A DNA stretch of 64,000 nucleotides from an uncultured Oligoflexia bacterium. Lineage in GTDB: Bacteria > Bdellovibrionota > UBA1018 > UBA6935. Both the position numbers and the translations under genes were made by a program. The notes beneath the pieces are model-generated. The model made no database searches and was not told the DNA's origin. It saw only the letters and a list, made by a program, of their open reading frames with translations. Location of the stretch: assembly GCA_964013565.1 (NCBI GenBank), contig CAXGWU010000001.1:93601-157600 (forward strand), given 5' to 3'. Below, one piece after another: positions 496 to 36,532 of the stretch (positions are counted from its first letter, which is position 1; each line of letters starts with the position of its first letter).

Positions 496-1368
496 ATGAG
501 GTTTACTTTTTTTATTGGTTTATTATTGTTTTCAACGTCCCTTTTTGCAGAAACTCTGTCTCACCAAATGGATCGTTTTCGGGTTCAAATTTTGAAATCT
601 ACCGTAGAGCCTTATGAAGAATCGCTTGGTCCGATTGTCTTTATCAAAGCTCCAACAGTGTTAGAGCAGAGTGTTTGGTTTACTCAGCTTAAAAAAATGA
701 TGAATGAACTTCCTAAAGAAGTGAATGTTTCTGTCATTTTGTATGGACCTCAGACTAAACCTGAAGTGTTAGCATCTCCTCATCATTGGGTGAACACCTC
801 ACTAACCCCACCTTGGAGTATTCAAAAGAAATTTGAAGCAGTTTATCGGGAGAAGGTAGGAACCTCAGAAACTTCATTGAAGGAATTTTCTGAAGCGTTT
901 TTTAAGTTTCATTTCATGCATGGAAATTTAAATTATGTTCGAATAATCAGAAATGAAATTTCAACTCTTGTCGCAGGTTTTTATTTTTCAGAAGATCCAA
1001 AAGAAAGAAAAATTTATTTTGATCGAATGATTCAACTAGACGGTTTAGTTACAGGAAGTATTCATGAGCCTATCGTTCATTTTGTGACTGAACATATGAT
1101 TGAGGCATTGAAAACATCTATGAATAAAGCAATAGAAAGCTTCGTATTAGATTTATTGAAGAAATGGAAGCATACGTCTGCTTCAATGTATGTTGATTTA
1201 TTAGAGTCGTTTACGAAAGAACTCAAGACTCGTTTAAAAAATAAAGGTTTTGAATCTGATTTATCTTCAAAAAAAGTTCGAATGATTGTGAGTATGCATA
1301 AGGCTTTGATCATTATCCAAGCTAATCAACCTTGTCCGACTCATTTTAAAGCACTTAAAGATGATTAA
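496..1368 (+). CDS. hypothetical secreted protein with C-terminal CxxxF motif
   Basis: 290-aa ORF with signal peptide MRFTFFIGLLLFSTSLFA. Its single cysteine lies in the C-terminal QPCPTHFKALKDD. No family recognised. Confidence 0.6.
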   Translation: MRFTFFIGLLLFSTSLFAETLSHQMDRFRVQILKSTVEPYEESLGPIVFIKAPTVLEQSVWFTQLKKMMNELPKEVNVSVILYGPQTKPEVLASPHHWVNTSLTPPWSIQKKFEAVYREKVGTSETSLKEFSEAFFKFHFMHGNLNYVRIIRNEISTLVAGFYFSEDPKERKIYFDRMIQLDGLVTGSIHEPIVHFVTEHMIEALKTSMNKAIESFVLDLLKKWKHTSASMYVDLLESFTKELKTRLKNKGFESDLSSKKVRMIVSMHKALIIIQANQPCPTHFKALKDD

Positions 1369-8310: not shown

Positions 8311-9795
8311 TTATCGTTTACTGTTAAAAGACAAAAATACACGATTGCATTTTAAATTTTCCCAGCTTTTTTGGTGATCTTGATAAGATTTCACAAGGTT
8401 ATCCAGTATTCTGTTTTTGAAAGGAGCCTTTTCAGAGAAAATTCTTGTTACTTTTTTGCTTGTCATTGAAATTTTTTGAATCAATGTAAAAAGGGTTACC
8501 GAAGGCTGAACGTCTCTTAGAACAGTATTGAGAATGTTTTCAAATTCTTTAGAGGAGATTTTCTTGTTTTTTCGTGCTACGGCTGTTTGTTCAAGAACGA
8601 GAAGAGGGATCCAGCGGTTTTTATAGTTTTTTGAAATTCTATGATAGAATTCAAAAAATTTAGAAATATCTTGTTTTTTACTTTCTTTGTTGAATGGTTT
8701 GTAAAAATTAGCAATTTCAGAATTGATAGATTCAATGTTTATTTTTTCTTTTTCCATTTTTAAAAGTAAATCTTCTTCATAATTCTTTTTTGAGATTCTT
8801 TTTTTTGTCCTATTCTTGATTTTGAATTGGTAGCCTAGCGCTTGAGCTTTTTTTATGACTTCCGCTAAAAAAGAATCGCTTGTAACAAGTTCGTAAATCG
8901 CTTTTTGATATCTAAGGAGATTCATTCTTACATCCGAAGACTTGGGGCCGAGTGACTTGGCGTAGCTATGATTGTTTTTATCTGTTGTAATTTCTGCAAA
9001 GCTTTGATTCCACGCGCCTACATAATGTTCATATCCAACTTCAGCAAACTTTGTTGAGACTTGATCATAGTAGTGAAGAGGAACGATGTTTTTATGATAT
9101 TCTGTTTGATCTGCTTGTTCTAAATTTTTTAATGTAGTTTCTTGAATTTTTCTTTTTTCCTTTAGTTCATATATGGATTCTCGAAAGGTTGGGGCAACTA
9201 CGCCTATAAAATAAAGTCGAGAAATGATGTCTTTGAGGTTTCCCCCGGAGTTTTCGTAGAGTCGGTACATTGCAGCAAGACAAGCTCGTCCTTGTCGTCC
9301 ATTTCCTTTAGAAACGGTGTCTACGAGTATGAGAGGTCTACCATTCATTCCATTTTTTAAGTCAAACCCTTTGCTTTTAAAAAGGCTATAGATTTGTTCG
9401 TCTGTAGGGTTGAATTTTGGACTAAAATCAGGATCCATTCCAAAAGTTGCTTTACTCATCCCCACTCTAATTACTTTATTGGGTTCTCCGATGCTATTGA
9501 AAAACCCTTCAATAATATCTGAAAATATTAGACTATCTCGACCTAAGAAGCCAAAAACTGCGTCTGGATAGATAAAAGATAAATGAGCGATAAATCTTGG
9601 TGCCTCTTTTTCTATAAATTGAAACCAATCAGGAAAAGGATTGTTTCCAGGAATTTCTTTTAAAACAGATTCCACCTTCTTCATAGATGGTCTTACGTTT
9701 TGATTGATTAAATTATTAATATCTTGGTCTTTTTGAGTCCAAGATAACATAGGAGAAAATAAGATAAGTAAGGCAATATATATTTTTGTTTTCAT
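8311..9795 (-). CDS. exported hypothetical protein, GRD-family paralogue (PRTase-like motifs, tentative)
   Basis: Signal peptide MKTKIYIALLILFSPMLSW. FGFLGRDSLIFSDIIEGFF..GEPN..IRVG and GRPLILVDTVSKGNGRQG resemble the HGPRT-type VLKGGYKFFADLL and VLIVEDIIDTGKT loops. Full-length paralogue of 16931-18463. C-terminal KCNRVF motif. Confidence 0.45.
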   Translation of the reverse strand: MKTKIYIALLILFSPMLSWTQKDQDINNLINQNVRPSMKKVESVLKEIPGNNPFPDWFQFIEKEAPRFIAHLSFIYPDAVFGFLGRDSLIFSDIIEGFFNSIGEPNKVIRVGMSKATFGMDPDFSPKFNPTDEQIYSLFKSKGFDLKNGMNGRPLILVDTVSKGNGRQGRACLAAMYRLYENSGGNLKDIISRLYFIGVVAPTFRESIYELKEKRKIQETTLKNLEQADQTEYHKNIVPLHYYDQVSTKFAEVGYEHYVGAWNQSFAEITTDKNNHSYAKSLGPKSSDVRMNLLRYQKAIYELVTSDSFLAEVIKKAQALGYQFKIKNRTKKRISKKNYEEDLLLKMEKEKINIESINSEIANFYKPFNKESKKQDISKFFEFYHRISKNYKNRWIPLLVLEQTAVARKNKKISSKEFENILNTVLRDVQPSVTLFTLIQKISMTSKKVTRIFSEKAPFKNRILDNLVKSYQDHQKSWENLKCNRVFLSFNSKR

Positions 9796-9797
9796 TT

Positions 9798-11288
9798 CTA
9801 TTTTCCTCTCATGAGTGCAATTGCATCTTCTTCTGAATCAATAAGATGAATTCTTCTTTTTAACCATTCAGGGTAATGATCAGAGATTAAGTTTTTAAGT
9901 AACGGTTTATAGAATTCGCTATTTATAAAAGCTAATTGAGAGCGCTTATTTGGATTTCCAGAAAAATCAACAAAAGTTGTTGCTAGTTCTTTCATCGTTC
10001 CATTGCCTCCAGGTCCTACAAAAATAAGGTCTTTGTCGTGCAGTAAAAAAGGAATTCGTGTTTCATAATCCATTGATTCAATGACAAATCTTTTATTGCT
10101 AAAAGAATAAGATTTCCCAATGATAATATCGATGGCAGTTCCTCCATTATCAATGCTTGCATTTGCTGCGGCTTCCATGAGGCCACCCCCCCCACCGCTT
10201 GATAAGATATATTTATTTTTTGCAGAAACTTTAGCTACGAGTTGAACTAGTTGTCTCCAGCGATAGTCAAACGAACTAGACCCAAAAAAAACCGCTTTTT
10301 TATGATCTTTCAAACTTTCAGAAATATAATCTATATCTTCAATTCCAGCTAAGTAATTAGAGATGATTAATTTAAAACTATAATCAAATTGATGACTAAA
10401 CTTTTCTTCGTTGAAAGGAATAATGCTTTTATATCTATTGGGACCCGGAGTAATAAAACTTAAGTCATTTTTAATTTTTAAGTATGAAGACTTAAATTTT
10501 CCTAATGCTTTGAAATTTAAAAAGTCTGAATCCCATTCATTTTTATAGTTAATGAGGAAATCTAGTTTATCGATTAAATGAAGAGCTAAGGCTGTAACAG
10601 AACGAGTATCACCTACTGACTTTCCTATAGAAAAAGCTTTAAGTCTTAAGTAAGGATTTTCAATTGCAATGATGTTTTCATTTAAATTTTCTTTATTTGG
10701 GTCCGCAGTAATGCCTACTCCAAGTTTCCCTAATGTTTTTTGTATATCTTTCGCTGATATTGAATCTGCATCGTAGAAAAATATTTGAGAAAAATTAGAT
10801 AGTGTTTTTTTGAGTGAATTGAGATCGACTGTGGTTGGGTAATCGGTGGTTCCAAAAAGAAGAGTGTATGGATTCATATTGGAAAACGAATCTAACCACT
10901 TAAATCTCATAAGATCTGAAAGAAATGATTTTGATTGATCTTTTCTATCTAATTTAAAAATTTCCTCTATTGATAATTCTTGAGGTTTACTACTTTTTGA
11001 TGGAAGTTTTCTATTCTTGTTTTCGTAATGACTATTGGAATAACCTTTATAAGAATATGGGCTGTCTGTATCTAGACTTGTAACTGGAGATTGATAATCA
11101 AATTGGTATGTGTTGTTAACAGCAATCTCACTTATATCAGGAACTTCATCAATTTTAGGTGGTTTGATTCCGTGAATTCCAAAAACTAAAGCGCATTGAG
11201 AAGAAAATAAATGGTCCAAATTAGAAGTAGCGTTGGATGTTAATGTATAGATGATACCTACTATAGATATCAAAAAAAGATTTTTCAT
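9798..11288 (-). CDS. exported tandem LOG/TIGR00730-like protein (degenerate N-repeat plus intact C-repeat)
   Basis: Signal peptide MKNLFLISIVGIIYTLTS. The C-terminal domain carries both LOG signatures, SSGGGGGLMEAAANAS and VGPGGNGTMKELAT. Paralogue of 15189-16880 (YETRIPFLLHDK / YETRIPLLLHEK). The single Cys lies in an N-terminal CALVF. Confidence 0.65.
   Translation of the reverse strand: MKNLFLISIVGIIYTLTSNATSNLDHLFSSQCALVFGIHGIKPPKIDEVPDISEIAVNNTYQFDYQSPVTSLDTDSPYSYKGYSNSHYENKNRKLPSKSSKPQELSIEEIFKLDRKDQSKSFLSDLMRFKWLDSFSNMNPYTLLFGTTDYPTTVDLNSLKKTLSNFSQIFFYDADSISAKDIQKTLGKLGVGITADPNKENLNENIIAIENPYLRLKAFSIGKSVGDTRSVTALALHLIDKLDFLINYKNEWDSDFLNFKALGKFKSSYLKIKNDLSFITPGPNRYKSIIPFNEEKFSHQFDYSFKLIISNYLAGIEDIDYISESLKDHKKAVFFGSSSFDYRWRQLVQLVAKVSAKNKYILSSGGGGGLMEAAANASIDNGGTAIDIIIGKSYSFSNKRFVIESMDYETRIPFLLHDKDLIFVGPGGNGTMKELATTFVDFSGNPNKRSQLAFINSEFYKPLLKNLISDHYPEWLKRRIHLIDSEEDAIALMRGK
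10186..10193 (-). repeat. G8 homopolymer (C8 on the plus strand) inside the LOG GGGxG motif codons
   Basis: Direct read: ggccaccccccccaccgc. On the coding strand this is ggt ggg ggg ggt ggc, encoding GGGGG. Confidence 0.95.
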
Positions 11289-13237
11289 TTTATGTCCCCA
11301 ATAAAATTTTTCTCACATTTTTCCTCAATATCTCCATTAATTACTTCTTTTATAAATGTTTTTTTTATGTGAAGAGATTGAGCCCATTTATTTCCGAGTT
11401 CATCTAAATAGAGGAGTCTAGTTTCGGTATCTGTGGTTGTCGGAATGAGATGACCGTAGTACCAAAGGCTCCACGTTCCATTGTGAAAATATAAACTATC
11501 TGGAGTTAAACCGTGAATATATAGATTTAAATGAACTAGATGATCAAAAAAATCCGCAAGTGCTGTCCATGCAATTGTTTCATGAATTGGAACCGCTGCT
11601 TTATTTGAAAGCTCTCTTAAAGAAACTCCTTGTGGTTCATCTATCGCAACAAAATAAAGACTGTTTCTTATCTTAGAAACAATAATTCTATTCTCTTGTA
11701 GGTGCAATAGCTCATAGTATGAAGGTGTTCCTGGGTCAAACCTAAAGATCACTTGTTTTAAATTTTTTTCTTTTTGAATGATTTCATATTTTTTCAATTC
11801 TCCAATGTTCACTTTTTTTGGCGAAGAATTAATAAAAGGAGGCTCTTTTTTTATGTCATTATTTTCATAATTTAATTCATTACTTTTTTTTCGTCTTTTC
11901 TTTTTGGGACCTTTTGAATGATTTTGGAAGTTTTGTTTATCTAGTAATTCTTTCCAAAATAAATCAATTTCTTTTTTTTTGCTTTTAAGTTCTTCTCTTA
12001 ACCATTTTGTTTTTAGTTTGTTTGAGTATTCATTTAGAGTTCTATGTTTGCTGAAAAAAGTTCTAATTGGTCCGCTATCAACTATTTGCCATTCTTTTCC
12101 ATCAAAAATAAGATTGTCAGGGTTTAATCCGGAGACATAAATGTATTTTTCAGAAGCTTTAATGAAAAATTTTTCTAGTGCTAATTTTTTTGGGTTATTT
12201 TTTGTGTCTAAAATTTTTTCATCGAGAATCGCTTCTCTTAATCGAGTTCCTTCAATGAAATTCATAAGTAGAGACTTTTTATCTGTACTCCATTTCACAT
12301 TAACTGAAGACAGACCGTTTTTTCTCCATTCTTCTGATAGCTCTATCTGTTTTTTGAAACTTTTTTGAATATCCGCACTATCGTTTACTGGAACTTTCCA
12401 AGCCCATAGTTCTCCATTTGAGTCCTTTAACTGATGAACTCTACCTGTTTTTCCAACGCCTACGGCTTCTTTTTCTAATGAGTAACCTTCCGGAATATCG
12501 ACCTCTTTAACTGAGTTAATGAGAGCTAATAATTTTTCCCAGTTTTTTTCTTCAATCAAATCTTTGGCATTTTGTAAGAACTTTCTCCTTTGGCTAACTT
12601 CGGTAATGGTATTGGCTTTTTTTAGAACTTGAAAATGAATTGGTTCGAGATCAATTTTTGGGAAAACATACCGACTCAATCGCCTGAGAGTTTTTGTGTT
12701 TGCTCGGCTTGTGATAATCCAAATTAATTCAAAATCATCTCTATAAGAGGATAGAGGAAGGATATGTTTTGTAAAAGATTCTAATTCATCTAATGGTATG
12801 ATCGCTGCTGTATAACGAAGAGAAGGAAGTAAATTTTTTTCATTACTTTGAGTGAATAGTTTAAAGAGTGTAGAAAAGTTATAAATTTTTTTGTCGCTTA
12901 AAATGCCAATTAGAACATTGTTATTGTTTTTTCCTTTTTCTGAATGCAAATATTGATTAATAATGATGTCTCTTAGACAGAAACTTTCTGTCGCTAGTTT
13001 AATATAAAATTTATCAGGTGGGTTGTTTTGTGATTTAATGATTTCATCAATGATAGCTATATTCATCGCTTTATATTCATTGCTTTTCGCCAAAGATAGT
13101 TTTTTTATAACCTGAGAAATCGCCTCCCACTGTTGATTTTCGATTAGTTTTTTGAGTCGATGTGGAACCACGGTTTGAGCATGTGCTGGTATGATAAAAA
13201 ACAGACAAGCTAAATATAAGAAAATTTGTTTTTTCAT
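11285..13237 (-). CDS. exported protein with two atypical protein-kinase-like modules
   Basis: Signal peptide ending AHA-Q. Module 1: GVGKTGRV (G-loop), WAWKV, LLMNFIEG (hinge), GLNPDNLIF, IVDSG. Module 2: FVAIDEPQGVSL, IHGLTPDSLYF. Lys-rich linker KGPKKKRRKK. C-terminal KCEKNF. Confidence 0.45.
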   Translation of the reverse strand: MKKQIFLYLACLFFIIPAHAQTVVPHRLKKLIENQQWEAISQVIKKLSLAKSNEYKAMNIAIIDEIIKSQNNPPDKFYIKLATESFCLRDIIINQYLHSEKGKNNNNVLIGILSDKKIYNFSTLFKLFTQSNEKNLLPSLRYTAAIIPLDELESFTKHILPLSSYRDDFELIWIITSRANTKTLRRLSRYVFPKIDLEPIHFQVLKKANTITEVSQRRKFLQNAKDLIEEKNWEKLLALINSVKEVDIPEGYSLEKEAVGVGKTGRVHQLKDSNGELWAWKVPVNDSADIQKSFKKQIELSEEWRKNGLSSVNVKWSTDKKSLLMNFIEGTRLREAILDEKILDTKNNPKKLALEKFFIKASEKYIYVSGLNPDNLIFDGKEWQIVDSGPIRTFFSKHRTLNEYSNKLKTKWLREELKSKKKEIDLFWKELLDKQNFQNHSKGPKKKRRKKSNELNYENNDIKKEPPFINSSPKKVNIGELKKYEIIQKEKNLKQVIFRFDPGTPSYYELLHLQENRIIVSKIRNSLYFVAIDEPQGVSLRELSNKAAVPIHETIAWTALADFFDHLVHLNLYIHGLTPDSLYFHNGTWSLWYYGHLIPTTTDTETRLLYLDELGNKWAQSLHIKKTFIKEVINGDIEEKCEKNFIGDIK

Positions 13238-15192
13238 TTTTTAAGGTTTCCAGGTGTTCCAAATAGGATTTGACATGTCGAAGTACTGTTAGAACTAAAG
13301 CTCTTATTTTTACGACTGTCATGATAAAAGAACTCTTTTAAAAAATTCATATCTGAAAGCATTTCAGTTTGAGTTTTGTCTGTAAAAAAATAAGTATAAA
13401 ATCCTTTATTGAGACGTGGAGTGTAGTCTACATTAACAATTTGCTCAGCGTTATCGACCTGAAAATTTGCGGCTTTGAAGTCTAACCAAATGTTTTGTTC
13501 TGCTGCAATTTTTTTTGCGATAAGCCATTGTTCCAATACCTGGTTTTTTATTTTTTTCGGTATTTCTTCAATTGGATTTTGAGAATATTTTGCTTCTAAG
13601 TTTTTTCCGTCAAAGTAAGTTTGTTCTACAATTACCCCTGTTGGATGTGCATAAAGTATTTTTGCATGCCTAAAATTTGGATAATTTTTTAGAATTCTAT
13701 CTTGTGTCCATTTTTGCAAAAGAGATTTACGTGCATTTTTTGGGTTTTTTGTAATTTTAATAACTCTATTTTTATCACTTAAAAATACTTGTACATTTCT
13801 ACCTTCTCCTAGATATCCTTTTAACTTATAGAGGACTGCATTATTAGAGGTTAGAACCATTGGGTAATTTGGATCATCGCTTTTTTTGATTTCCAGAGAT
13901 GAAAAAAAGTCATTTGCTCCCTCTAATGGTTCCAGATATTGCCAATCTTTCATAGCACTGAAGCCTTTTTGATGGACTTCAGATATTTCCTGAAATAAGA
14001 GTTCGTTTTTGTTTAAGTCTTTTTTGTTTTTTCTTATTTTTTCTTGATTTTTAGTGGTCTTCTTTTTTACTGGAATAATTGTTTCAGCAAGTCGTAGATC
14101 AGATACTAGTCCAAGGAGTGATATAACTTTTTGAGATAGTTTTATAGGTTTGTCACTATAAATATGAAGTGACGGTTTTGTTTTAAATTTTAGTCCTGTT
14201 TGTATAAACTTATGACGATGCTCTAGTAGATTGTGAACATGATCAGCATCCCAGTGATTAATTGCTCCTGGAATAGCGATTTGAAATCGTTGAATAGAAA
14301 AAAAATAATCAGTTTCGGTGAGTTTTTTAATAGTCTCTGAAGAGAGTTCTTCGTTGTTCCTGGTGTAATTGTTGATAATATCTTTAAAAGAAGAGTTTCC
14401 ATCTACTCTTTTTGATCTCAAATATCTGAAATCTACAAGTTTCAGGAATTGAGTTGCTTCAGATTTATTTAGGTTTTCACAAATGGCTCTTAAAATTGCT
14501 CTGGGAATTTTTCCAGACATACTTGAATCCATAAATACTAAGCCATTTTTTAATAATCTCTCTTTTGTTAGTCCGATGGAATTTAATAAATGGTAAATTT
14601 CAGAAGTTTGATGGTTGAAGATTAAGTCTCTTATTTTCCTTGATACATTAAGGGTGTAAAGAAAATTTTTATCTATAGATTTTTTTAAAGAGATAAAAAG
14701 ATATGGAGCCGTAAAGTCTCTTCCTATAAAAAATAAATTTTTATTATTAAAATCTCTTTTGATTTCATTTTCTATTTGAGCGATTACAGGAATGATGACT
14801 TCTGTTTCGTATTCTTGAGTGTAACGAATAAGTTGATCTGTTATTTTTTTAGAATCAATTGAATCTAAAGAAACAACACCGATTTTTTTGTCTAATTCAA
14901 GAGCACTATTTTTAAGTTTTGAGCGTTTATTTGACCAATGAAAAAAGAGTTCATTGAAAAACTGAGTTTTTTCTTGAGTCGTTAGAGTTTTAACTTCTTC
15001 TAAAATTAAATAGATGTCATTACGAATTGACTCTAAAATATCGGTTTGAATCCATTTTTTAAGAAATTCATCGTAGCTATTAGAGTTTTGGGCTTGAAGA
15101 GCTGATTCATAGTGATTTTCTATTACATCGCTGGAAAATACATTAGTCTCAGTAAAGCAAAATAATAGAATAAATAAAATTAATTTATTCAT
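13234..15192 (-). CDS. exported fusion of a GRD-family (PRTase-like) N-domain and an ePK-like kinase C-domain
   Basis: Signal peptide MNKLILFILLFCF. N-half: LFFIGRDFTAPYLFISL and GLVFMDSSMSGKIPR. C-half: LGEGRNVQVF (GxGxxxxV), VIKITK (VAIK-like), VIVEQTYFDG (hinge), WLDFKAANFQV (DxKxxN), NVDY (DFG-like). C-terminal TCQILF. Confidence 0.55.
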   Translation of the reverse strand: MNKLILFILLFCFTETNVFSSDVIENHYESALQAQNSNSYDEFLKKWIQTDILESIRNDIYLILEEVKTLTTQEKTQFFNELFFHWSNKRSKLKNSALELDKKIGVVSLDSIDSKKITDQLIRYTQEYETEVIIPVIAQIENEIKRDFNNKNLFFIGRDFTAPYLFISLKKSIDKNFLYTLNVSRKIRDLIFNHQTSEIYHLLNSIGLTKERLLKNGLVFMDSSMSGKIPRAILRAICENLNKSEATQFLKLVDFRYLRSKRVDGNSSFKDIINNYTRNNEELSSETIKKLTETDYFFSIQRFQIAIPGAINHWDADHVHNLLEHRHKFIQTGLKFKTKPSLHIYSDKPIKLSQKVISLLGLVSDLRLAETIIPVKKKTTKNQEKIRKNKKDLNKNELLFQEISEVHQKGFSAMKDWQYLEPLEGANDFFSSLEIKKSDDPNYPMVLTSNNAVLYKLKGYLGEGRNVQVFLSDKNRVIKITKNPKNARKSLLQKWTQDRILKNYPNFRHAKILYAHPTGVIVEQTYFDGKNLEAKYSQNPIEEIPKKIKNQVLEQWLIAKKIAAEQNIWLDFKAANFQVDNAEQIVNVDYTPRLNKGFYTYFFTDKTQTEMLSDMNFLKEFFYHDSRKNKSFSSNSTSTCQILFGTPGNLKK

Positions 15193-16880
15193 CTTTTATT
15201 CCTCTTTTTATTAAAGAAATAAATTTCTTCATCTAAAAGGCCAAAGCTGAAGAGGGTCTCTATAGTGATTTTTAATTCAAAATCGTTTTTGACAAAATGA
15301 ATTCTATCTTTAATGAATTGCGGAATTGATGAGCTGTCGATTTGATTTTTTAAGCCACTGTAATAGTCATCACCCACAAAAATGATCTCTAATTTTTCTT
15401 TTGGGTTTTCTAGAAGTTTTAGAATCGTTATCCAAAATTCTTTCATGGTTCCAGAGCCTCCTGGAACAAAAACAACAAGTTGTTTTTCGTGAAGAAGGAG
15501 AGGGATTCGGGTTTCATATCCACTACTCGAAACGGTAAGAGAATGATGTTCTTTTTCTACTTTTTTTTCTGTTTTTAGAGTGTGTTTACCCGTGATAGGG
15601 ATCCCAACTGATGGAACATGAGATGATATTGCTGCAGTATTTGAAGTTTTCATGGCACCGCCAGCTCCGCCAGTCGTGATGCTAATATCAAGAGATCCTA
15701 AGGCGAGACCAGATTTGAAAATAAGGTTCTCAAAAGGATTCTCATCCCTTCCCGTTCCAAAAACTGCAGCTCCTCTTACTCCTGTTAAATCTTCTTGTCC
15801 GATTAGAAGTTCAGTAACTTCTTTGACGATATGATCAATTTGATAATCAGAAAGGTCTGAAAGAGTTATTTTTTTTGGTTTAAATTGTTTTGTAATTATT
15901 GGGAAAATTTCTGTCTCAACGTGAGGAGAGGTACGAATAGGCTCTCCTGCAAGGTCAAATTCTTGATTAAAGTAACTTTTACTGTAGATAGGAGATGAAG
16001 GGATTTTTTTAATCGCTGTAGTAACGGTTGTAGCTTGATCAAAAATAGGTATTTCTTTAGTTCGAACTCCCATGTTTATGTTCATAAGATCTAAGTCTTG
16101 TTTCCATTGATGAAGAGAAAAGTTCCATTCTTTTTTTGGATCAAAAATAATGTCTATTTCATTATTGAATAATCCCGCAAATCCAGTTGTGGAGTCAGGA
16201 GTTGTAATTATTTTTTCCGAGGTGTTAAATAAAGCCTGTGCTCTTAAGTAGGTGTTTTTAATGTAAACTTGGCCTCTTTGTTTTGTTGGTTGATTAGAGA
16301 TACCAAAAGATGATTTTTGAGCTAGAGATTGAATTAGTTTAGCGTAAGGACTATTTGATTCGTAGAGGATAAAATATCCACGAGAAATAAATTGAGAAAC
16401 TAATTCGGTCAATTCAGTTTGCATTTGAGGATCAGGCTGTGTTCCAGAAGTCCCTGCAAGAATCGTCACTGTTTGTTTTGAATTTAGTTTTTTTAATCTT
16501 TCTAGGTTGAGGTGATCTTGAATGTACTGACCTTCAGTAGTTAATAATACCAATTCAAGTGCTTTTAGGTTTTTTTCTCTGTTTGTTTTTTTTAGACGTT
16601 GAATCTCTGAAGTTATTTGAGCTATTTGCTTTTTTACCGATTGATTTTCTTTTTTTCCAGAATTACTAAAAATTTTTTTTAGTAATCCTCTTTGTTTTTT
16701 AGAAATTTTTTTAGTATTTAAAGACGTTAATTTTTTTTCTAATTCTTTAATCCGTTCTGACTCCTGATTTAGACTAGTTAGTCGTTCTAATGTGGATAGA
16801 CGACTTAAAAAATTTTCTTCACATCCGGCTAAAGAGAAGTGATGGGCAATTAAAGTTAAAATAATAATAAGTTTTTTCAC
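15189..16880 (-). CDS. exported (lipobox) coiled-coil plus tandem LOG/TIGR00730-like protein
   Basis: MKKLIIILTLIAHHFSLAGC (lipobox LAGC, then CEENF). Lys/Glu-rich coiled coil. Degenerate first repeat (TILAGTSG..ITTPDSTTGFAG). Intact second repeat with TTGGAGGAMK and VPGGSGTMKEF. Confidence 0.65.
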   Translation of the reverse strand: MKKLIIILTLIAHHFSLAGCEENFLSRLSTLERLTSLNQESERIKELEKKLTSLNTKKISKKQRGLLKKIFSNSGKKENQSVKKQIAQITSEIQRLKKTNREKNLKALELVLLTTEGQYIQDHLNLERLKKLNSKQTVTILAGTSGTQPDPQMQTELTELVSQFISRGYFILYESNSPYAKLIQSLAQKSSFGISNQPTKQRGQVYIKNTYLRAQALFNTSEKIITTPDSTTGFAGLFNNEIDIIFDPKKEWNFSLHQWKQDLDLMNINMGVRTKEIPIFDQATTVTTAIKKIPSSPIYSKSYFNQEFDLAGEPIRTSPHVETEIFPIITKQFKPKKITLSDLSDYQIDHIVKEVTELLIGQEDLTGVRGAAVFGTGRDENPFENLIFKSGLALGSLDISITTGGAGGAMKTSNTAAISSHVPSVGIPITGKHTLKTEKKVEKEHHSLTVSSSGYETRIPLLLHEKQLVVFVPGGSGTMKEFWITILKLLENPKEKLEIIFVGDDYYSGLKNQIDSSSIPQFIKDRIHFVKNDFELKITIETLFSFGLLDEEIYFFNKKRNKR

Positions 16881-16930
16881 CGTTTATTTAGTCCTTTTTT
16901 AAAAGTAAGATTTGCTTTTTTTAAAATGAT

Positions 16931-18463
16931 TTATTTTTTATCTATTTGTGTAAAAATTCGATTACATCCAGTTTTTGTAAGATAATCTGAGATGGTTTTA
17001 GTGTGTTCCGAAATTTTCCCTCCAAATTTGTCGGAGTTTTTAAATTCATCTTCTCTTTTTTCAAACATAGATCTGAATTTTTCATCGTTTTCATAAAGCT
17101 CCCGAATAGCTTTTAGTTGATCGTCAGAAAGAGAAGGAGTGTTGCCTAGGACATAACGATAAAGTCGTTTATAATCTCTTCCTTTAATTTTCTGAGAAGC
17201 TCTTGCTCTAGTGATAGCCTGCATAAATGGGACAATGATTTTGTCTTTAAAATCTGTATTTTGAAATTGCTTTAACCATTGAAGGTAGTGATTTCCGTTG
17301 TTTGAGAGTTTGTTTGTGATTTCTCCGGGTTCATTTAAAGATTGTTCTATTTCAAAAAGGTTTTTTAGATGTTCTTTAAGTTGTTCTTGTTTTTTCTCTT
17401 CTTGAAGAGCTAATTCTTTTTTTCTTTGTTTTTTTCTTTCATTGATTTGTTGTGACGTTAGTGATTGATAAAGTTTTGAATTTCCATCTAAATCAATTTT
17501 ATAGAGTTTTAGATATTCATCTAATTTGTCTTTAAATTCATTAGATTTAATGAGTTCGATAATTATATAAATTTCTTGTAAAACAGTTTTTTTTGAAATA
17601 TTCGAAAATTGCACGCCAGAAATTGGAATAAGTTTTTCGTTTATTTCTTTAAAACCTAGCCATGAATCATGCCACTCTGAAGTCCTATGATTTATCCTAA
17701 AAAAAGTTCCATAACTTGTGCTTAATCGTGGAACCGGTACGCCGTCTATATGAGATAGTGATGATACGTTTTCGAAAAAGTTTTCCTGATCAAAGTCTTC
17801 GTTGATAGTATGTTTTAGGTTGTTGTCGCTAATATTAACAAACGCAATTTTTCCAAGAAGATCTTTTGGGTCTTTTCCTAGATTTTTGTAGGTTTCATAG
17901 AGATATCTCATCGTTAGCCTGGATTGGCTTGCTTCTCCTCCTCCTCCTCCACTGGTATAAGTTGGGCTATAGCTACTAAAATCATAGAGAACCCAAGGGG
18001 CACTTTCTGTAATGGTATCGAAGTTAATGCCTAGAGACTGAGCATATCGAACAATGGTTTCTGAGGAAGAGTTTTTAAAACTTGGAGTACTTGCGTTGAA
18101 TCTTCCTGCGCGATTAGGCTCACCTCTCAGATAGTAAAACGCTTCCAGGGCTAGACTATTTTGGATGACATCTCTTCCAAGAGAAAAATATCTTCCTCCA
18201 GGAAAGGCTTTTTCAAAACTTACAATCATTCTGGCGATATTGTTTATAGCATTAGGGTAAGCATTAGCGATAAACTCTTGATTAAGCATTTTTTCATGAC
18301 TCGGCCATGGGTTGAGTACAGTGAGCATTTCTTCGATTGTGGGAACTGTTTTTTTTTGTACTAACTCATCAATTTGATTTTCTAATTGTGTTTGATCAGA
18401 AAAAGCAAAAGAAATGAAAAGAAAGTGGAGGCTAAAAAAAATAGATTTATTTATGAGTTTCAT
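16931..18463 (-). CDS. exported hypothetical protein, GRD-family paralogue (PRTase-like motifs, tentative)
   Basis: Start taken at internal Met MKLINKSIFFSLHFLFISFAF (signal peptide). This removes the overlap with the upstream gene. YFSLGRDVIQNSLALEAFYYLRGEPN and WVLYDFSSYSPTYTSGGGGGE. Single Cys in the C-terminal GCNRIF. Confidence 0.45.
   Translation of the reverse strand: MKLINKSIFFSLHFLFISFAFSDQTQLENQIDELVQKKTVPTIEEMLTVLNPWPSHEKMLNQEFIANAYPNAINNIARMIVSFEKAFPGGRYFSLGRDVIQNSLALEAFYYLRGEPNRAGRFNASTPSFKNSSSETIVRYAQSLGINFDTITESAPWVLYDFSSYSPTYTSGGGGGEASQSRLTMRYLYETYKNLGKDPKDLLGKIAFVNISDNNLKHTINEDFDQENFFENVSSLSHIDGVPVPRLSTSYGTFFRINHRTSEWHDSWLGFKEINEKLIPISGVQFSNISKKTVLQEIYIIIELIKSNEFKDKLDEYLKLYKIDLDGNSKLYQSLTSQQINERKKQRKKELALQEEKKQEQLKEHLKNLFEIEQSLNEPGEITNKLSNNGNHYLQWLKQFQNTDFKDKIIVPFMQAITRARASQKIKGRDYKRLYRYVLGNTPSLSDDQLKAIRELYENDEKFRSMFEKREDEFKNSDKFGGKISEHTKTISDYLTKTGCNRIFTQIDKK
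17936..17950 (-). repeat. (TCC)5 trinucleotide repeat, i.e. (GGA)5 on the coding strand, encoding GGGGG
   Basis: Direct read: tcctcctcctcctcc within gcttctcctcctcctcctccactgg. Confidence 0.95.
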
Positions 18464-18464
18464 T

Positions 18465-19850
18465 TTATTTAATCTTTCTGCGTATAAATAACGTTTTACA
18501 AAGTGGAGTCTTTTTTTCTCCTGAAAATACAGACTGTAAAGTTTCCGAAATTTCAAAACCTAAATTTAAAACTGATATATCTGGCTGAGTAATGTTAAAT
18601 GAATTCGTCACAACCATGAGATCAATGTCTGGCGAGTCAATTGCTTTTTGAGCGTTTCCTGCAAGATGGCTAACAACACCAAATATCTTATTTGCACCAT
18701 GCTTTTTAAGAAACTCTGCTGACTCGGCAAGTGTTCCTCCAGAGGCAGTTTCGTCATCAACAATCGCTACAGTATGCCCTTTTACAGAGTCTCCACTAAT
18801 CCCGAGAATACGAGTCTCTCCAGTGAGAGGATTTCTTTTCTTATTGATAATTGCGAGGGGTAGGTGAAGTTCTTCTGCATATAAAGTAGCATCTTTTTGA
18901 AAACCAGCGTCAGGAGAAACGATAATAGAAACTCCCAGTTTCTTGAGTTCTTTATTGATTGTTTCTCTTCCGTTGATTTCAAAAACAGGGATAGAAAAAA
19001 AACCTACACTCTGAGGTGCATGCGGTCTTACAATTGTTATTGTTTTTACTCCTAGTCCCTCAATGAGGTCAGCAGTGAGTCTTCCTGTTACAGTAATTCC
19101 AAATTGATCTATCTTATCTGATCGAGCATAAGGAAGGTAGGGAGAGATCAGGTGAACTTGTTGCCACTTTGATTGAGTGCTATATATTTTATGTAAAGTA
19201 TCAAAAAATGATTTGTTTATTGGAGACTCAAGAGAAGATACATAAAATATATTGTATCCAGAGAGCTTTTTATTGTTGGGGTTCCATTCAGATTCTTGAA
19301 TGACTGGGATATTGAGTTGTTTTGATAAGGTGTCTCTCAATGAAGGGTTTGTGTCTCCTACAATTGCAAACTTTTTTTTAAAATTTTTTGTTTTTGTTTG
19401 ATATTCTGGAAAGTCATAATCTTGGTTTGCAATACGGTAAGATTCCGCCCCCGAAATTTTGAAAAGTTTTAATACAAAAGTTGAAGGTAAGGATTCAGAT
19501 TCAAAATGAACGGATATTGATAAGGCACCCATTGTTTTAGCGGTGCGAACTTTAATGAGAGCTTCCATAAGAAGGTCATCATGATCTTCAATGTTGTTTG
19601 GAATATACAGAGTTAGTTTCTGATTGATAGGATTTTTTAAAAATCGAACAAAAGTATTTCCGTTGCTAAACTCCGTTGTTTTTGTCGGAAGAATTTTACT
19701 TTCAATAGTTTCAGAATACGATTGAGTCTTTGCCTCATATCCACGAATTCCAACAAGCCATGGCTTTTTAGAAGCGATACAAACATTTGAAAAGCTAAAG
19801 CTTAAAAGAAATAAAAGTCCAAATTGTATTTTTTTTTGTGCCCCACCCAT
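18465..19850 (-). CDS. ribose-phosphate pyrophosphokinase (PRPP synthetase) homologue with signal peptide and an extra degenerate N-half
   Basis: Prs motifs LISPYLPYARSDK, SPDAGF, the flexible loop KKRNPLTGETRILGISGDSVKGH, the PRPP loop VAIVDDETASGGTL, and VVTNS. The N-terminus MGGAQKKIQFGLLFLLSFSFSNVCIA looks like a signal peptide. Residues ~50-150 repeat the Prs N-half (FSNGNTFVRF..DDLLMEALIKV). C-terminal LCKTLF. Confidence 0.7.
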   Translation of the reverse strand: MGGAQKKIQFGLLFLLSFSFSNVCIASKKPWLVGIRGYEAKTQSYSETIESKILPTKTTEFSNGNTFVRFLKNPINQKLTLYIPNNIEDHDDLLMEALIKVRTAKTMGALSISVHFESESLPSTFVLKLFKISGAESYRIANQDYDFPEYQTKTKNFKKKFAIVGDTNPSLRDTLSKQLNIPVIQESEWNPNNKKLSGYNIFYVSSLESPINKSFFDTLHKIYSTQSKWQQVHLISPYLPYARSDKIDQFGITVTGRLTADLIEGLGVKTITIVRPHAPQSVGFFSIPVFEINGRETINKELKKLGVSIIVSPDAGFQKDATLYAEELHLPLAIINKKRNPLTGETRILGISGDSVKGHTVAIVDDETASGGTLAESAEFLKKHGANKIFGVVSHLAGNAQKAIDSPDIDLMVVTNSFNITQPDISVLNLGFEISETLQSVFSGEKKTPLCKTLFIRRKIK

Positions 19851-34768: not shown

Positions 34769-35621
34769 ATAGAGTCCTGTTTCTTTTTTCTACTAATTTA
34801 AAATGCAAACTGTAGTTTTGAAGTGAGAGACCGTAAGATCCTGAATTTGCAATATATCCTTCTTTGTAGCGAATGCCACCTAAGTTTTTATGGACTTCTG
34901 GATTGAGTTTGTGTCTTAAAACACTGTGCCATTCTCCATTTTGATCTACAATTGCACCGGTCTGACTTTCTTCATTATAATAAGTTCCTTCAATTTTAGG
35001 CCCTCGATAAAAGAGAATGCTTGCTCGAGCACCAATACCGACGCGAGAATGAATTTCAATCAAGGGTCTAGCGTTAAAAGTTTCTTTCATTTTTTTGTAT
35101 TGTTCTTGAATTTGTTGAGAGAAGTTTTCGACGGCGGGTTGATTGGCGAGTACCTCACTAAGATTTTTTTCTAGTGCTTCATCGTATCCACTTGAGTAAA
35201 AAAAATGTTCTAAGAGAAGTTGAATTCTTGTAGAAGAAGTCTCAAAGGAGTGTTTGATCACTTCAAAAAGAACTGGTTTTTGAATGTCTTTTGGCCATTT
35301 TAATAGTTTGGATACAAAATCAGAGGTTGTAGTTCTGTTCTGAAACTCATAGAGATCAACAGAACGAATAACAAATGGAATTAATTCTTCACTTGGTAAG
35401 CTGAGTGAAGCTTCTCCAATTTTTTCTAAATAGTTTGAAAAATAAGAAAGATCATTAATTGAAGCGTCATGAGCTCTTGCTAAGTTCAGTCTTATGTCAC
35501 CGAGAAGTTTTTGTTTGATTCCTTTTAGGCCTGAGAATTGATAACGGCAAGTAATGGGTTTCGGTGGCTGAGCGTATGAATATAAAGAGAAAAGAGAAAT
35601 AAATAGAAGAAGCAGTTTCAT
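34767..35621 (-). CDS. hypothetical secreted protein (single Cys in N-terminal CRYQF)
   Basis: Signal peptide MKLLLLFISLFSLYSYA. 284 aa. ATGA overlap with the upstream gene. Confidence 0.55.
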   Translation of the reverse strand: MKLLLLFISLFSLYSYAQPPKPITCRYQFSGLKGIKQKLLGDIRLNLARAHDASINDLSYFSNYLEKIGEASLSLPSEELIPFVIRSVDLYEFQNRTTTSDFVSKLLKWPKDIQKPVLFEVIKHSFETSSTRIQLLLEHFFYSSGYDEALEKNLSEVLANQPAVENFSQQIQEQYKKMKETFNARPLIEIHSRVGIGARASILFYRGPKIEGTYYNEESQTGAIVDQNGEWHSVLRHKLNPEVHKNLGGIRYKEGYIANSGSYGLSLQNYSLHFKLVEKRNRTL

Positions 35622-36532
35622 CGTTTTTTACCCTTTTTGTCGTAAAATTCAGACTCACAGTGACCTAAAAGTCCACGGTGGAGTCGTTGAAATCCATTGA
35701 GTGAAGCACGGGTTGTTTTTCTAGGGAAAAAGAGGCGAACTCCTGTTTGATCAAGAGATGAAAAAATGGAAAGAACTTTGTTTTCTGTAGATGGTGAGAG
35801 ACTTGCTTGAAAAAGAACGCGTTCTCGTTGATTGATATAAATTTCAATAAGGTTTTCAGCAATGAATTGCTTTTTTTTCATTTGTTCTGAAGCTTTTTGT
35901 TCTGTCCTTATTTTTTCTAAAATAGAGACTTGTCTTCGAAGGATTTCAGCAATTTTCAAATGAAAATCTTCGACAGGACGGAGTTTGAATTCTGAAGTCA
36001 ACTCATATCCATGTTGAAGGAGTATAAGGGTATCATTAAAATAGCGAATAAAGCGACGACCATCATCTTTCAGAGCTTCTCGCTCAAGATGATTTAAGTA
36101 GGAGGGATCGCTAATGGGGAGGCGATTTCGTAAAGTGAGTCGACGGAGATAGTTTTTTCTTTGGATGACCTCTTCTTGAAGCGTTTCTTTTACCATTGAA
36201 GAAAAAGAGGGGGAGTAATCATGAATCGCATTAAGCGCAGTGATTGCTTGATTTTGTTTTCTGTGTTCAAATGCATTCATTATTTCATTTCCCATTTGAT
36301 AGAGAAGAAGAACTAATTTGTCTTTTCTTGTTTCACGGCGAATTTTTGGATCTAAAAAAAGCTCTGTAAATTCTTTAGATTTTAAGGACAATGCAATCGG
36401 ATGATTTGTGAGGACAGCGTAGACTTTTTCTTGCCATTGAATTTCGTATTCGATTTCAGGATGGGTTGAGTGTGCATGTAAGGGGAGGAGAGAGACGATG
36501 ATACCGGTAAAAAAGAGTGTTATCGTTTTCAT
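35618..36532 (-). CDS. hypothetical secreted protein (single Cys in C-terminal HCESEF)
   Basis: Signal peptide MKTITLFFTGIIVSLLPLHA. 304 aa, mostly helical-looking. C-terminal LLGHCESEFYDKKGKKR. Confidence 0.55.
   Translation of the reverse strand: MKTITLFFTGIIVSLLPLHAHSTHPEIEYEIQWQEKVYAVLTNHPIALSLKSKEFTELFLDPKIRRETRKDKLVLLLYQMGNEIMNAFEHRKQNQAITALNAIHDYSPSFSSMVKETLQEEVIQRKNYLRRLTLRNRLPISDPSYLNHLEREALKDDGRRFIRYFNDTLILLQHGYELTSEFKLRPVEDFHLKIAEILRRQVSILEKIRTEQKASEQMKKKQFIAENLIEIYINQRERVLFQASLSPSTENKVLSIFSSLDQTGVRLFFPRKTTRASLNGFQRLHRGLLGHCESEFYDKKGKKR

Follow-up and report, generated by a model that had tools for sequence, protein, structure and literature searches.

Exported GRD-domain paralogues encoded beside a PRPP synthetase homologue in a Bdellovibrionota genome resemble PRPP-dependent gPRTs in predicted fold and loop motifs

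To our knowledge, the gPRTs, glycan phosphoribosyltransferases that depend on phosphoribosyl pyrophosphate (PRPP), were recognised in 2022-2023, are represented by two structures and have always been cytoplasmic capsule or O-antigen enzymes accompanied by a phosphatase. Here we analyse a stretch of 64,000 nucleotides (the window) from an uncultured Oligoflexia bacterium (GCA_964013565.1, contig CAXGWU010000001.1, positions 93,601 to 157,600). Three minus-strand open reading frames (ORFs) of this window, m1 (8311-9795, 494 aa), m2 (13234-15192, 652 aa) and m3 (16931-18463, 510 aa), share a domain with a conserved G-R-D motif and lie in a cluster that also encodes a PRPP synthetase homologue and two LOG/SLOG-like proteins. 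We propose that the GRD domain represents a remote branch of the PRPP-dependent gPRT/CriT fold that had so far gone unrecognised, and that the proteins are ribose-5-phosphate transferases associated with an exported PRPP synthetase. Judging from structure models and motifs, we give this reading a probability of about 0.6.

Among the closest known systems is CriT of Bcs3, the capsule multienzyme of H. influenzae type b (8A0C/8A0M; Cifuente et al. 2023, PMC10299916). Its five-stranded core is like that of phosphoribosyltransferases (PRTases), and PRPP was placed in it by homology to HGPRT, APRT, OPRT and UPRT. The beta-phosphate is held by S678, R679, S707 and S884, while D680 in loop 1 and E818 in loop 3 jointly stand in for the DD motif of PRTases; the D680A and E818A substitutions reduced activity (PMC10299916). 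The gPRT-PRP ribofuranosyltransferases of O-antigen synthesis include 7SHG as well as ORF5-O4 and ORF7-O7 of K. pneumoniae (Kelly et al. 2022, as cited in PMC11231755). These O-antigen enzymes are two-domain proteins, a gPRT joined to a HAD-type phosphoribosyl-phosphatase, and leave dephosphorylated ribofuranose in the polymer, whereas the window proteins come without a phosphatase partner.

The original prediction had joined m1, m3 and the N-terminal half of m2 in one paralogous family on the basis of two short sequence blocks. m1 and m3 aligned over their full length (BLASTP E=2e-16, 22% identity) and are, by sequence, unambiguous paralogues; m3 scored 224.8 bits with the family hidden Markov model (HMM) and E=1.7e-43 in hhalign. 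BLASTP gave no signal between m2 and m1 or between m2 and m3, and m2 reached 5.8 bits with the family HMM, the highest score of any non-member among the 106 ORFs of the window. By profile-profile comparison (hhalign), m2 matched the m1/m3 family with a probability of 86% (E=5e-6) over 97 columns that coincide exactly with the core from G-R-D to the Asp loop. A second run against a 113-sequence family profile gave 84% (E=7e-6) over 118 columns, and the remaining four cluster proteins, used as controls, gave E-values of 0.05-0.5. The structure models of m1 and m2, built separately, share the same two best matches in the PDB. The profile comparison and the independent fold match both tie m2 to the family, and the three-member family stands. 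Every quoted block motif was found at the ORF named, including the GEPN that follows block 1 in m1 and m3.

Modelling with AlphaFold2 (AF2) gave a pLDDT of 76.9 and a pTM of 0.79 for the m1 domain (residues ~22-327, 8815-9732, preceded by a signal peptide) and values of 79.6 and 0.81 for residues 21-375 of m2. For both models the two leading PDB matches were 7SHG_B, a ribofuranosyltransferase of T. composti, and 8A0C_A, which is Bcs3. These gPRT structures, aligned over 187-202 residues, are clear outliers at the top of both lists, with scores roughly double those of type I PRTases; with the m2 model they reached 9.2 and 9.0, and the following match 6.6. Foldseek likewise ranked a Bcs3 chain first for m1 (8a0m_D, E=0.02, probability 0.82). 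Both GRD models display the gPRT catalytic-domain fold including its helical additions, with a PRTase-like five-stranded alpha/beta core between helical regions as in CriT. The 80-residue helical insertion HB-2 of CriT is missing from the GRD domain, and m1 has instead another, variable insertion after strand 4 (~200-255), which was poorly modelled (low pLDDT). An AlphaFold and Foldseek comparison had been suggested as a check of the type I assignment. It supported a PRTase-like core, and the nearest solved structures are the two PRPP-dependent gPRTs.

The three loops that form the PRPP site of gPRTs have apparent counterparts in the GRD proteins. Loop 1 reads IYFISRDGHF in Bcs3 and VFFLSREGEY in 7SHG (both taken from the PDB sequences), and GFLGRDSLIF in m1, FFIGRDFTAP in m2 and FSLGRDVIQN in m3. 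The corresponding loops 2 are YIYGSRKAW and YLLVSRKAT in the two known enzymes and IRVGMSKATF, TLNVSRKIR and RFNASTPSF in m1, m2 and m3, respectively. Loop 3 is FAFVEFWGRGYTQD in Bcs3, HIVDVGWKGTIQD in 7SHG, LILVDTVSKGNGRQG in m1, LVFMDSSMSGKIP in m2 and WVLYDFSS...ASQS in m3. Thus FFLSREG, LLVSRKA and IVDVGWKGTIQD of the 7SHG type parallel FLGRD, VGMSK and LVDTVSKGNGRQ, including the Asp and Gln of loop 3, and the m1 segment VDTVSKGNGRQ parallels VDVGWKGTIQ of 7SHG and VEFWGRGYTQ of Bcs3. Taken together, G-R-D, S-[K/R] and strand-D...Q appear to reproduce the loops S-R-D/E, S-R and E/D...Q of gPRTs, as a match of motifs rather than a superposition. Spacing and order also agree: loops 1 and 2 are 29 residues apart both in m1 (G85-S114) and in Bcs3 (S678-S707), and the models follow the published order of elements in CriT (strand-GRD-helix, strand-S-helix, strand-D-loop-helix, strand).

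Conservation across 113 full-length domain sequences singles out the same positions. In m1 numbering, the G-R-D that follows the first core strand (G85-R86-D87, 9535-9543) is present with G85 in 113, R86 in 112 and D87 in 113 of them. S114 of loop 2 (S114-K115, 9451-9456) occurs in 112, D159 (9319-9321) and Q168 (9292-9294) of loop 3 in all 113, and W262 (9010-9012) in 111. The same motifs are found in m2 at 14716-14724 (GRD), 14638-14643 (S184-R185) and 14527-14529 (D222, in FMDSSMSGKIP), within a divergent N-half domain at 14068-14895 that follows a signal peptide and a helical region; m2 lacks the loop-3 Gln. In m3, whose domain spans residues ~22-330 (17474-18400) behind a signal peptide, they lie at 18170-18178 (GRD), 18089-18097 (N-A-S) and 17981-17983 (D161, followed by an enlarged Gly-rich loop, SSYSPTYTSGGGGGEASQS). 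The residue after the loop-2 Ser is Lys or Arg in m1 and m2 and Thr in m3.

Since motifs, spacing and element order agree, the two blocks of the original prediction are best read as the first and third loops of a PRPP site of the gPRT type: block 1 corresponds to S678-R679-D680 of CriT and block 2 to the loop with E818 (FWGRGYTQ). The matching of these blocks to PRTase loops was therefore sound, and the assignment to the HGPRT type was not. The puzzle of one acidic residue where HGPRT has two would likewise be explained, because the DD function is split in CriT between D680 and E818, which correspond to D87 and D159 of m1.

Type I PRTases (HGPRT, APRT, OPRT, UPRT) do share with the GRD domain a strand-acid-small-residue loop for the 5-phosphate of PRPP and a strand-x-R/G-x-helix element by the pyrophosphate, the likeness first noticed by eye. 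If GRD domains were true type I nucleobase PRTases (PF00156), the cluster could serve base salvage, with LOG-type enzymes freeing bases and the PRPP synthetase providing PRPP. We consider this very unlikely. PF00156 and the NCBIfam PRTase models had no match in m1, m2 or m3 at E<=1, whereas PRS-like, the PRPP synthetase homologue, was found in the same runs (PF00156 E=2.3e-9), and membership of the type I family was rejected. The type I PRPP loop, with two adjacent acids before x-x-T-G-x-T, is replaced by a single Asp (LILVD-T, VLYD-F and VFMD-S), one Asp occupying this column in 113 of 113 family members, and the second acid comes from another loop as in CriT. The GRD domain is also about twice the size of a type I PRTase, with helical additions and no recognisable hood or base-binding subdomain, and the gPRT structures outscored type I PRTases in the model comparisons. 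Finally, a LOG reaction followed by a type I PRTase reaction would be a futile cycle.

PRS-like (18465-19850, minus strand, 461 aa) is a bona fide homologue of PRPP synthetase. It matched TIGR01251 with E=3.9e-53 (180.4 bits, cutoff 113) and exceeded the cutoffs of PF13793, PF14572 and PF00156. Its sequence contains PYARSDK, RPHAPQSVGFF, NKKR and IVDDETASGGT, which we take to be the counterparts of motifs in the PRPP synthetases of E. coli and B. subtilis. The protein has a signal peptide, an N-terminal extension of ~150 aa and a C-terminal Cys tag (described below), and an export signal on a PRPP synthetase homologue is unusual. We propose PRS-like as the donor-making enzyme of the cluster. 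The idea that PRPP-using PRTase-like domains sit beside a PRPP synthetase homologue is thus retained in part: the fold and loops make the neighbours PRTase-like and probably PRPP-using, but of another family than the one named.

The association is conserved. PRS-like, LOG-like, m1-like and adjacent m2-like genes, usually with an m3-like gene, occur together in at least five genomes including that of the window. The syntenic loci are L001/L002/L003/L007 (one organism), L004/L005, L006 and L011; at L009 only LOG-like neighbours were seen. L006 carries six GRD paralogues, among them three further tandem m1-like genes (11926-17226), and L004 (4576-7875, plus strand) encodes a 1099-aa protein that combines an m3-like GRD region with a weak Pkinase match (residues 267-402, E=3.6e-6). 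As GRD domains are fused or multiplied at these two loci, the association of kinase-like and GRD regions is recurrent and not specific to m2. In a literature search, neither the cluster nor the C-terminal Cys tag was found described, and no account of a PRPP synthetase secreted by Bdellovibrio came up.

Several observations weigh against placing the GRD domains with the gPRTs. The AF2 alignments were shallow (5 sequences for m1, 4 for m2), and the Foldseek E-values (0.02-0.09) are not significant. Neither phmmer nor hmmsearch, with m1, m2 and a family profile of 32 sequences as queries, picked up any chain among the PDB sequences, not even 7SHG or 8A0C. Identity to CriT is ~10%, and hhalign of the family profile against CriT, and against CriT plus 7SHG, gave E-values of 0.07-0.4; neither this profile nor that of m2 reached significance, the alignments nevertheless being in register at loops 1 and 2 (GRD on SRD). 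Loop 1 of the GRD proteins has Gly in place of the gPRT Ser (Ser678 in Bcs3), and no GRD residue aligns securely with E874, which has been proposed as the catalytic base of CriT. Unlike in Bcs3, no HAD phosphatase (CrpP), ribitol-phosphate transferase or SH3b domain is fused or adjacent; no HAD domain was found in the seven cluster proteins or the syntenic loci, and no glycosyltransferase, polymerase, ABC transporter or flippase in the cluster or its syntenic copies. Known gPRTs are cytoplasmic, paired with HAD phosphatases and encoded in polysaccharide loci, whereas the GRD proteins lie outside capsule and O-antigen loci and are predicted to be exported, to sites normally without PRPP and ATP. 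PRS and LOG neighbours are both missing at two GRD loci, L008 (Bacteriovorax sp. BSW11_IV) and L010. The GRD domains are thus gPRT/CriT-like and differ from characterised gPRTs in sequence homology, phosphatase partner and cytoplasmic polysaccharide context; the proposed relationship rests on structure models and motifs.

A gPRT-like fold might also serve another role, in an enzyme or binding module for phospho-sugars or nucleotides, for example an isomerase, a phosphatase or a sensor for a nucleotide-derived ligand, which would work alongside the SLOG and kinase-like proteins in a system centred on nucleotides. SIS-type phosphosugar isomerases as well as ATP-citrate lyase had Foldseek E-values like those of Bcs3, and the sequence link to gPRTs is not significant. 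Pairs of PRTase-fold and SLOG/LOG-superfamily proteins also occur in the anti-phage systems ShosTA and PsyrTA, and in PADLOC PRS-like weakly matched ShosT and PsyrT and LOG2, one of the LOG/SLOG-like proteins, weakly matched PsyrA. Those systems, however, are cytoplasmic toxin-antitoxin-like pairs without the GRD and kinase-like proteins, whereas here all components are exported and the PRTase-fold partner is the PRPP synthetase homologue itself. Such a role seems unlikely to us, as the two gPRT structures stand out at the top of both model lists and the three PRPP-site loops, all invariant, recur in the same order and with the same spacing. A dedicated PRPP synthetase that is conserved along with the GRD genes also speaks for PRPP as the currency of these proteins.

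If the GRD proteins are PRPP-dependent transferases, their loops suggest how the donor would be bound. By analogy with the published CriT structure, the pyrophosphate would be gripped by the G-R-D Arg and the S-[K/R] Ser. The Asp of G-R-D and the Asp at the end of the third strand would form the equivalent of a split DD motif that positions the ribose and Mg2+, and the 5-phosphate would be held by the Gly-rich loop together with the invariant Gln that follows the strand-3 Asp. Each paralogue would then transfer ribose-5-phosphate from PRPP to a nucleophile of the acceptor, most likely a hydroxyl, and the three enzymes of the window would act on three different acceptors or form three different linkages. 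As there is no phosphatase partner, the products would keep their 5-phosphate.

LOG-type enzymes free ribose-5-phosphate from nucleoside monophosphates, and PRPP synthetase converts ribose-5-phosphate and ATP into PRPP. From these family activities, the LOG-like proteins would supply ribose-5-phosphate from nucleoside monophosphates and PRS-like would turn it, with ATP, into PRPP for the GRD enzymes. Because all parts are exported and ATP is needed, the pathway would most plausibly act in an ATP-containing compartment outside the cytoplasm of the producer, such as the invaded or killed prey cell of this Bdellovibrio-like organism or the bdelloplast; the site of action is the weakest step of the argument. 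Somewhat speculatively, and with the odds against it, we suggest that Bdellovibrio-like predators export a self-contained PRPP economy, in which prey nucleotides and ATP are converted into PRPP and then into phosphoribosylated macromolecules of the prey or bdelloplast, or into a ribose-phosphate polymer. It would comprise a secreted PRPP synthetase, LOG-type nucleotide N-glycosidases and multiple gPRT-like transferases, several of them kinase-fused, with the signal peptide and the Cys tag as marks of its components. This would represent a new class of PRPP-dependent effector chemistry outside the producer cytoplasm.

Alternatively, the cluster might decorate an envelope glycan of the producer itself, rather than the prey, with ribofuranose. 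All characterised gPRTs make capsule or O-antigen, and the lipoprotein signal of LOG1, the second LOG/SLOG-like protein, suggests retention in the envelope. Yet the cluster and its syntenic copies are devoid of the glycosyltransferase, polymerase, transporter, flippase and HAD phosphatase genes listed above, the periplasm offers neither PRPP nor ATP, and the cluster is flanked by housekeeping genes (thyA, folA and a UvrD/PcrA-type helicase). We therefore regard decoration of the producer's own envelope as improbable.

The GRD proteins add to the gPRTs a large family without a Pfam or NCBIfam model that has the gPRT fold and PRPP-site loops in an entirely different setting: exported, with no phosphatase partner, with several paralogues per locus and in the company of LOG-type enzymes and of an exported PRPP synthetase dedicated to them. 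Should the proposed transferase function be correct, PRPP-based O-phosphoribosylation would reach beyond polysaccharide synthesis, a new predator-prey or envelope-modifying activity would be suggested, hundreds of 'hypothetical proteins' would obtain a testable function, and the puzzling secreted PRPP synthetase would have a rationale.

At E<=1e-3, an exhaustive HMM search found 345 family representatives, one for each cluster at 50% identity, of which 193 were at E<=1e-30. Their lengths range from single-domain proteins of ~320 aa to giants of 1864 aa. Scans of m1, m2 and m3 with Pfam and NCBIfam gave no match, and PADLOC gave nothing meaningful. The few family members with a named source, three sources in total, come from predatory Bdellovibrionota, a sparse sampling of the taxonomic range: a scan of a genome collection returned one locus, in an uncultured Bdellovibrio metagenome-assembled genome (MAG), a look-up of 20 cluster representatives returned a single organism name, Bacteriovorax sp. 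BSW11_IV, and a marine 'Bdellovibrionaceae bacterium' MAG has deposited hypothetical proteins identical to m1 (CL678_04845) and m3 (CL678_04820). For m3, we placed the start at 18463 (510 aa), which agrees with the deposited protein and yields a signal peptide, and not at the longer TTG ORF from 18556.

Pfam searches for fusion partners in eight long family members gave just one sub-threshold HAD match. It lies in P0051, a metagenomic protein of 1296 aa with a full GRD domain at 42-327 and a partial second one at 944-1051; the region between them (~613-815) matched the HAD phosphatase models Acid_phosphat_B (E=0.003) and NIF (E=0.006) below threshold. These matches may be a relic, or a true case, of the pairing of gPRT and HAD phosphatase in characterised ribofuranosyltransferases.

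The C-half of m2 (13234-13905), a region kept in its orthologues, possibly forms a protein-kinase-like domain, read by eye from LGEGRNVQVF..VIKITK and WLDFKAANFQV..VNVDY; a Pfam scan had no match in m2 or its orthologues P0006-8. The C-terminal region of m1 is helical and rich in Lys and Glu, and that of m3 is helical. K650 (11285-13237, minus strand, 650 aa) is another exported protein, in which a degenerate fourth GRD copy had been suspected. With hhalign probabilities below 1% against both GRD family profiles, it is excluded from the family and is weakly kinase-like instead, as seen in a PADLOC match to PD-T4-6 (E=9.3e-6, residues 256-347) and a sub-threshold Pkinase match in its L001 orthologue (E=2.3e-5).

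LOG1 (15189-16880, minus strand, 563 aa) matched PF03641 (33.1 bits, cutoff 27) and PF18306 (29.4, cutoff 26.3) and, weakly, a PpnN nucleosidase model; its C-terminal LOG domain has the motifs GGAGGAM and PGGSGTMKE. LOG2 (9798-11288, minus strand, 496 aa) matched PF18306 (32.5 bits, cutoff 26.3), with TIGR00725 and TIGR00730 sub-threshold, and has a signal peptide and a C-terminal SLOG domain with SGGGGGLM and PGGNGTMKE. The N-terminal extension of PRS-like reads as a degenerate second PRS N-domain (FSNGNTFVRFLKN..LLMEALIKVRTAK), and TIGR01251 matches two stretches of the protein. The L001 locus, in a Bdellovibrio MAG, encodes next to its m2 orthologue an exported RelA/SpoT-family nucleotide pyrophosphokinase (12006-13013, minus strand; PF04607 E=1.6e-9, signal peptide), a second ATP-dependent pyrophosphoryl-transfer enzyme in the exported set.

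All seven cluster ORFs start with a Sec-type signal peptide. Signal peptides were also found in 121 of 150 GRD-family members and are kept in the orthologues of every cluster component. LOG1 differs from the other six proteins by its lipoprotein signal (MKKLIIILTLIAHHFSLAG|C, with the lipobox SLAGC), so that at least one component may be membrane-tethered and not released.

Many of these exported proteins end in a Cys tag, a Cys located 6-15 residues from the stop, usually in the form C-x-x-[hydrophobic]-[F/L/Y] and often followed by basic residues. Examples are KCNRVFLSFNSKR (the end of m1), GCNRIFTQIDKK (m3), TCQILFGTPGNLKK, LCKTLFIRRKIK and KCEKNFIGDIK; m2 ends in ..STCQILFGTPGNLKK. In the cluster, the tag is carried by 8311-9795, 11285-13237, 13234-15192, 16931-18463 and 18465-19850; it also occurs on two further exported ORFs of the window (496-1368 and 35618-36532) and at L001, L004, L006 and L011. 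Among 150 GRD-family members, 124 have a Cys within the last 20 residues and 88 of these match the full motif, and all four PRS-like orthologues checked at other loci combine tag and signal peptide. The tag spans unrelated families (GRD, PRS-like and kinase-like proteins), in every case on proteins that also have an N-terminal signal peptide, and is absent from LOG-like and RelA/SpoT-like proteins. It has the look of a signal for sorting, anchoring or secretion. Many exported LOG-like orthologues at L001, L004, L006 and L011 have acidic/aromatic tails (..SDDDYWD, ..YDLDDWY, ..GDFDGGDF, ..RKYFGGW), which are absent from both window copies and may be a second type of C-terminal motif.

The seven minus-strand ORFs are closely packed and fill 8311-19850 of the window. 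One flank of the cluster consists of thyA and folA, and the other of the UvrD/PcrA-type helicase, identified from sequence, and of proteins for cytochrome c biogenesis, of which ResB was recognised by Pfam and the second by sequence reading. The G+C content is ~31% in the cluster and 37-41% in the housekeeping flanks, which is consistent with an acquired island or a strongly biased composition.

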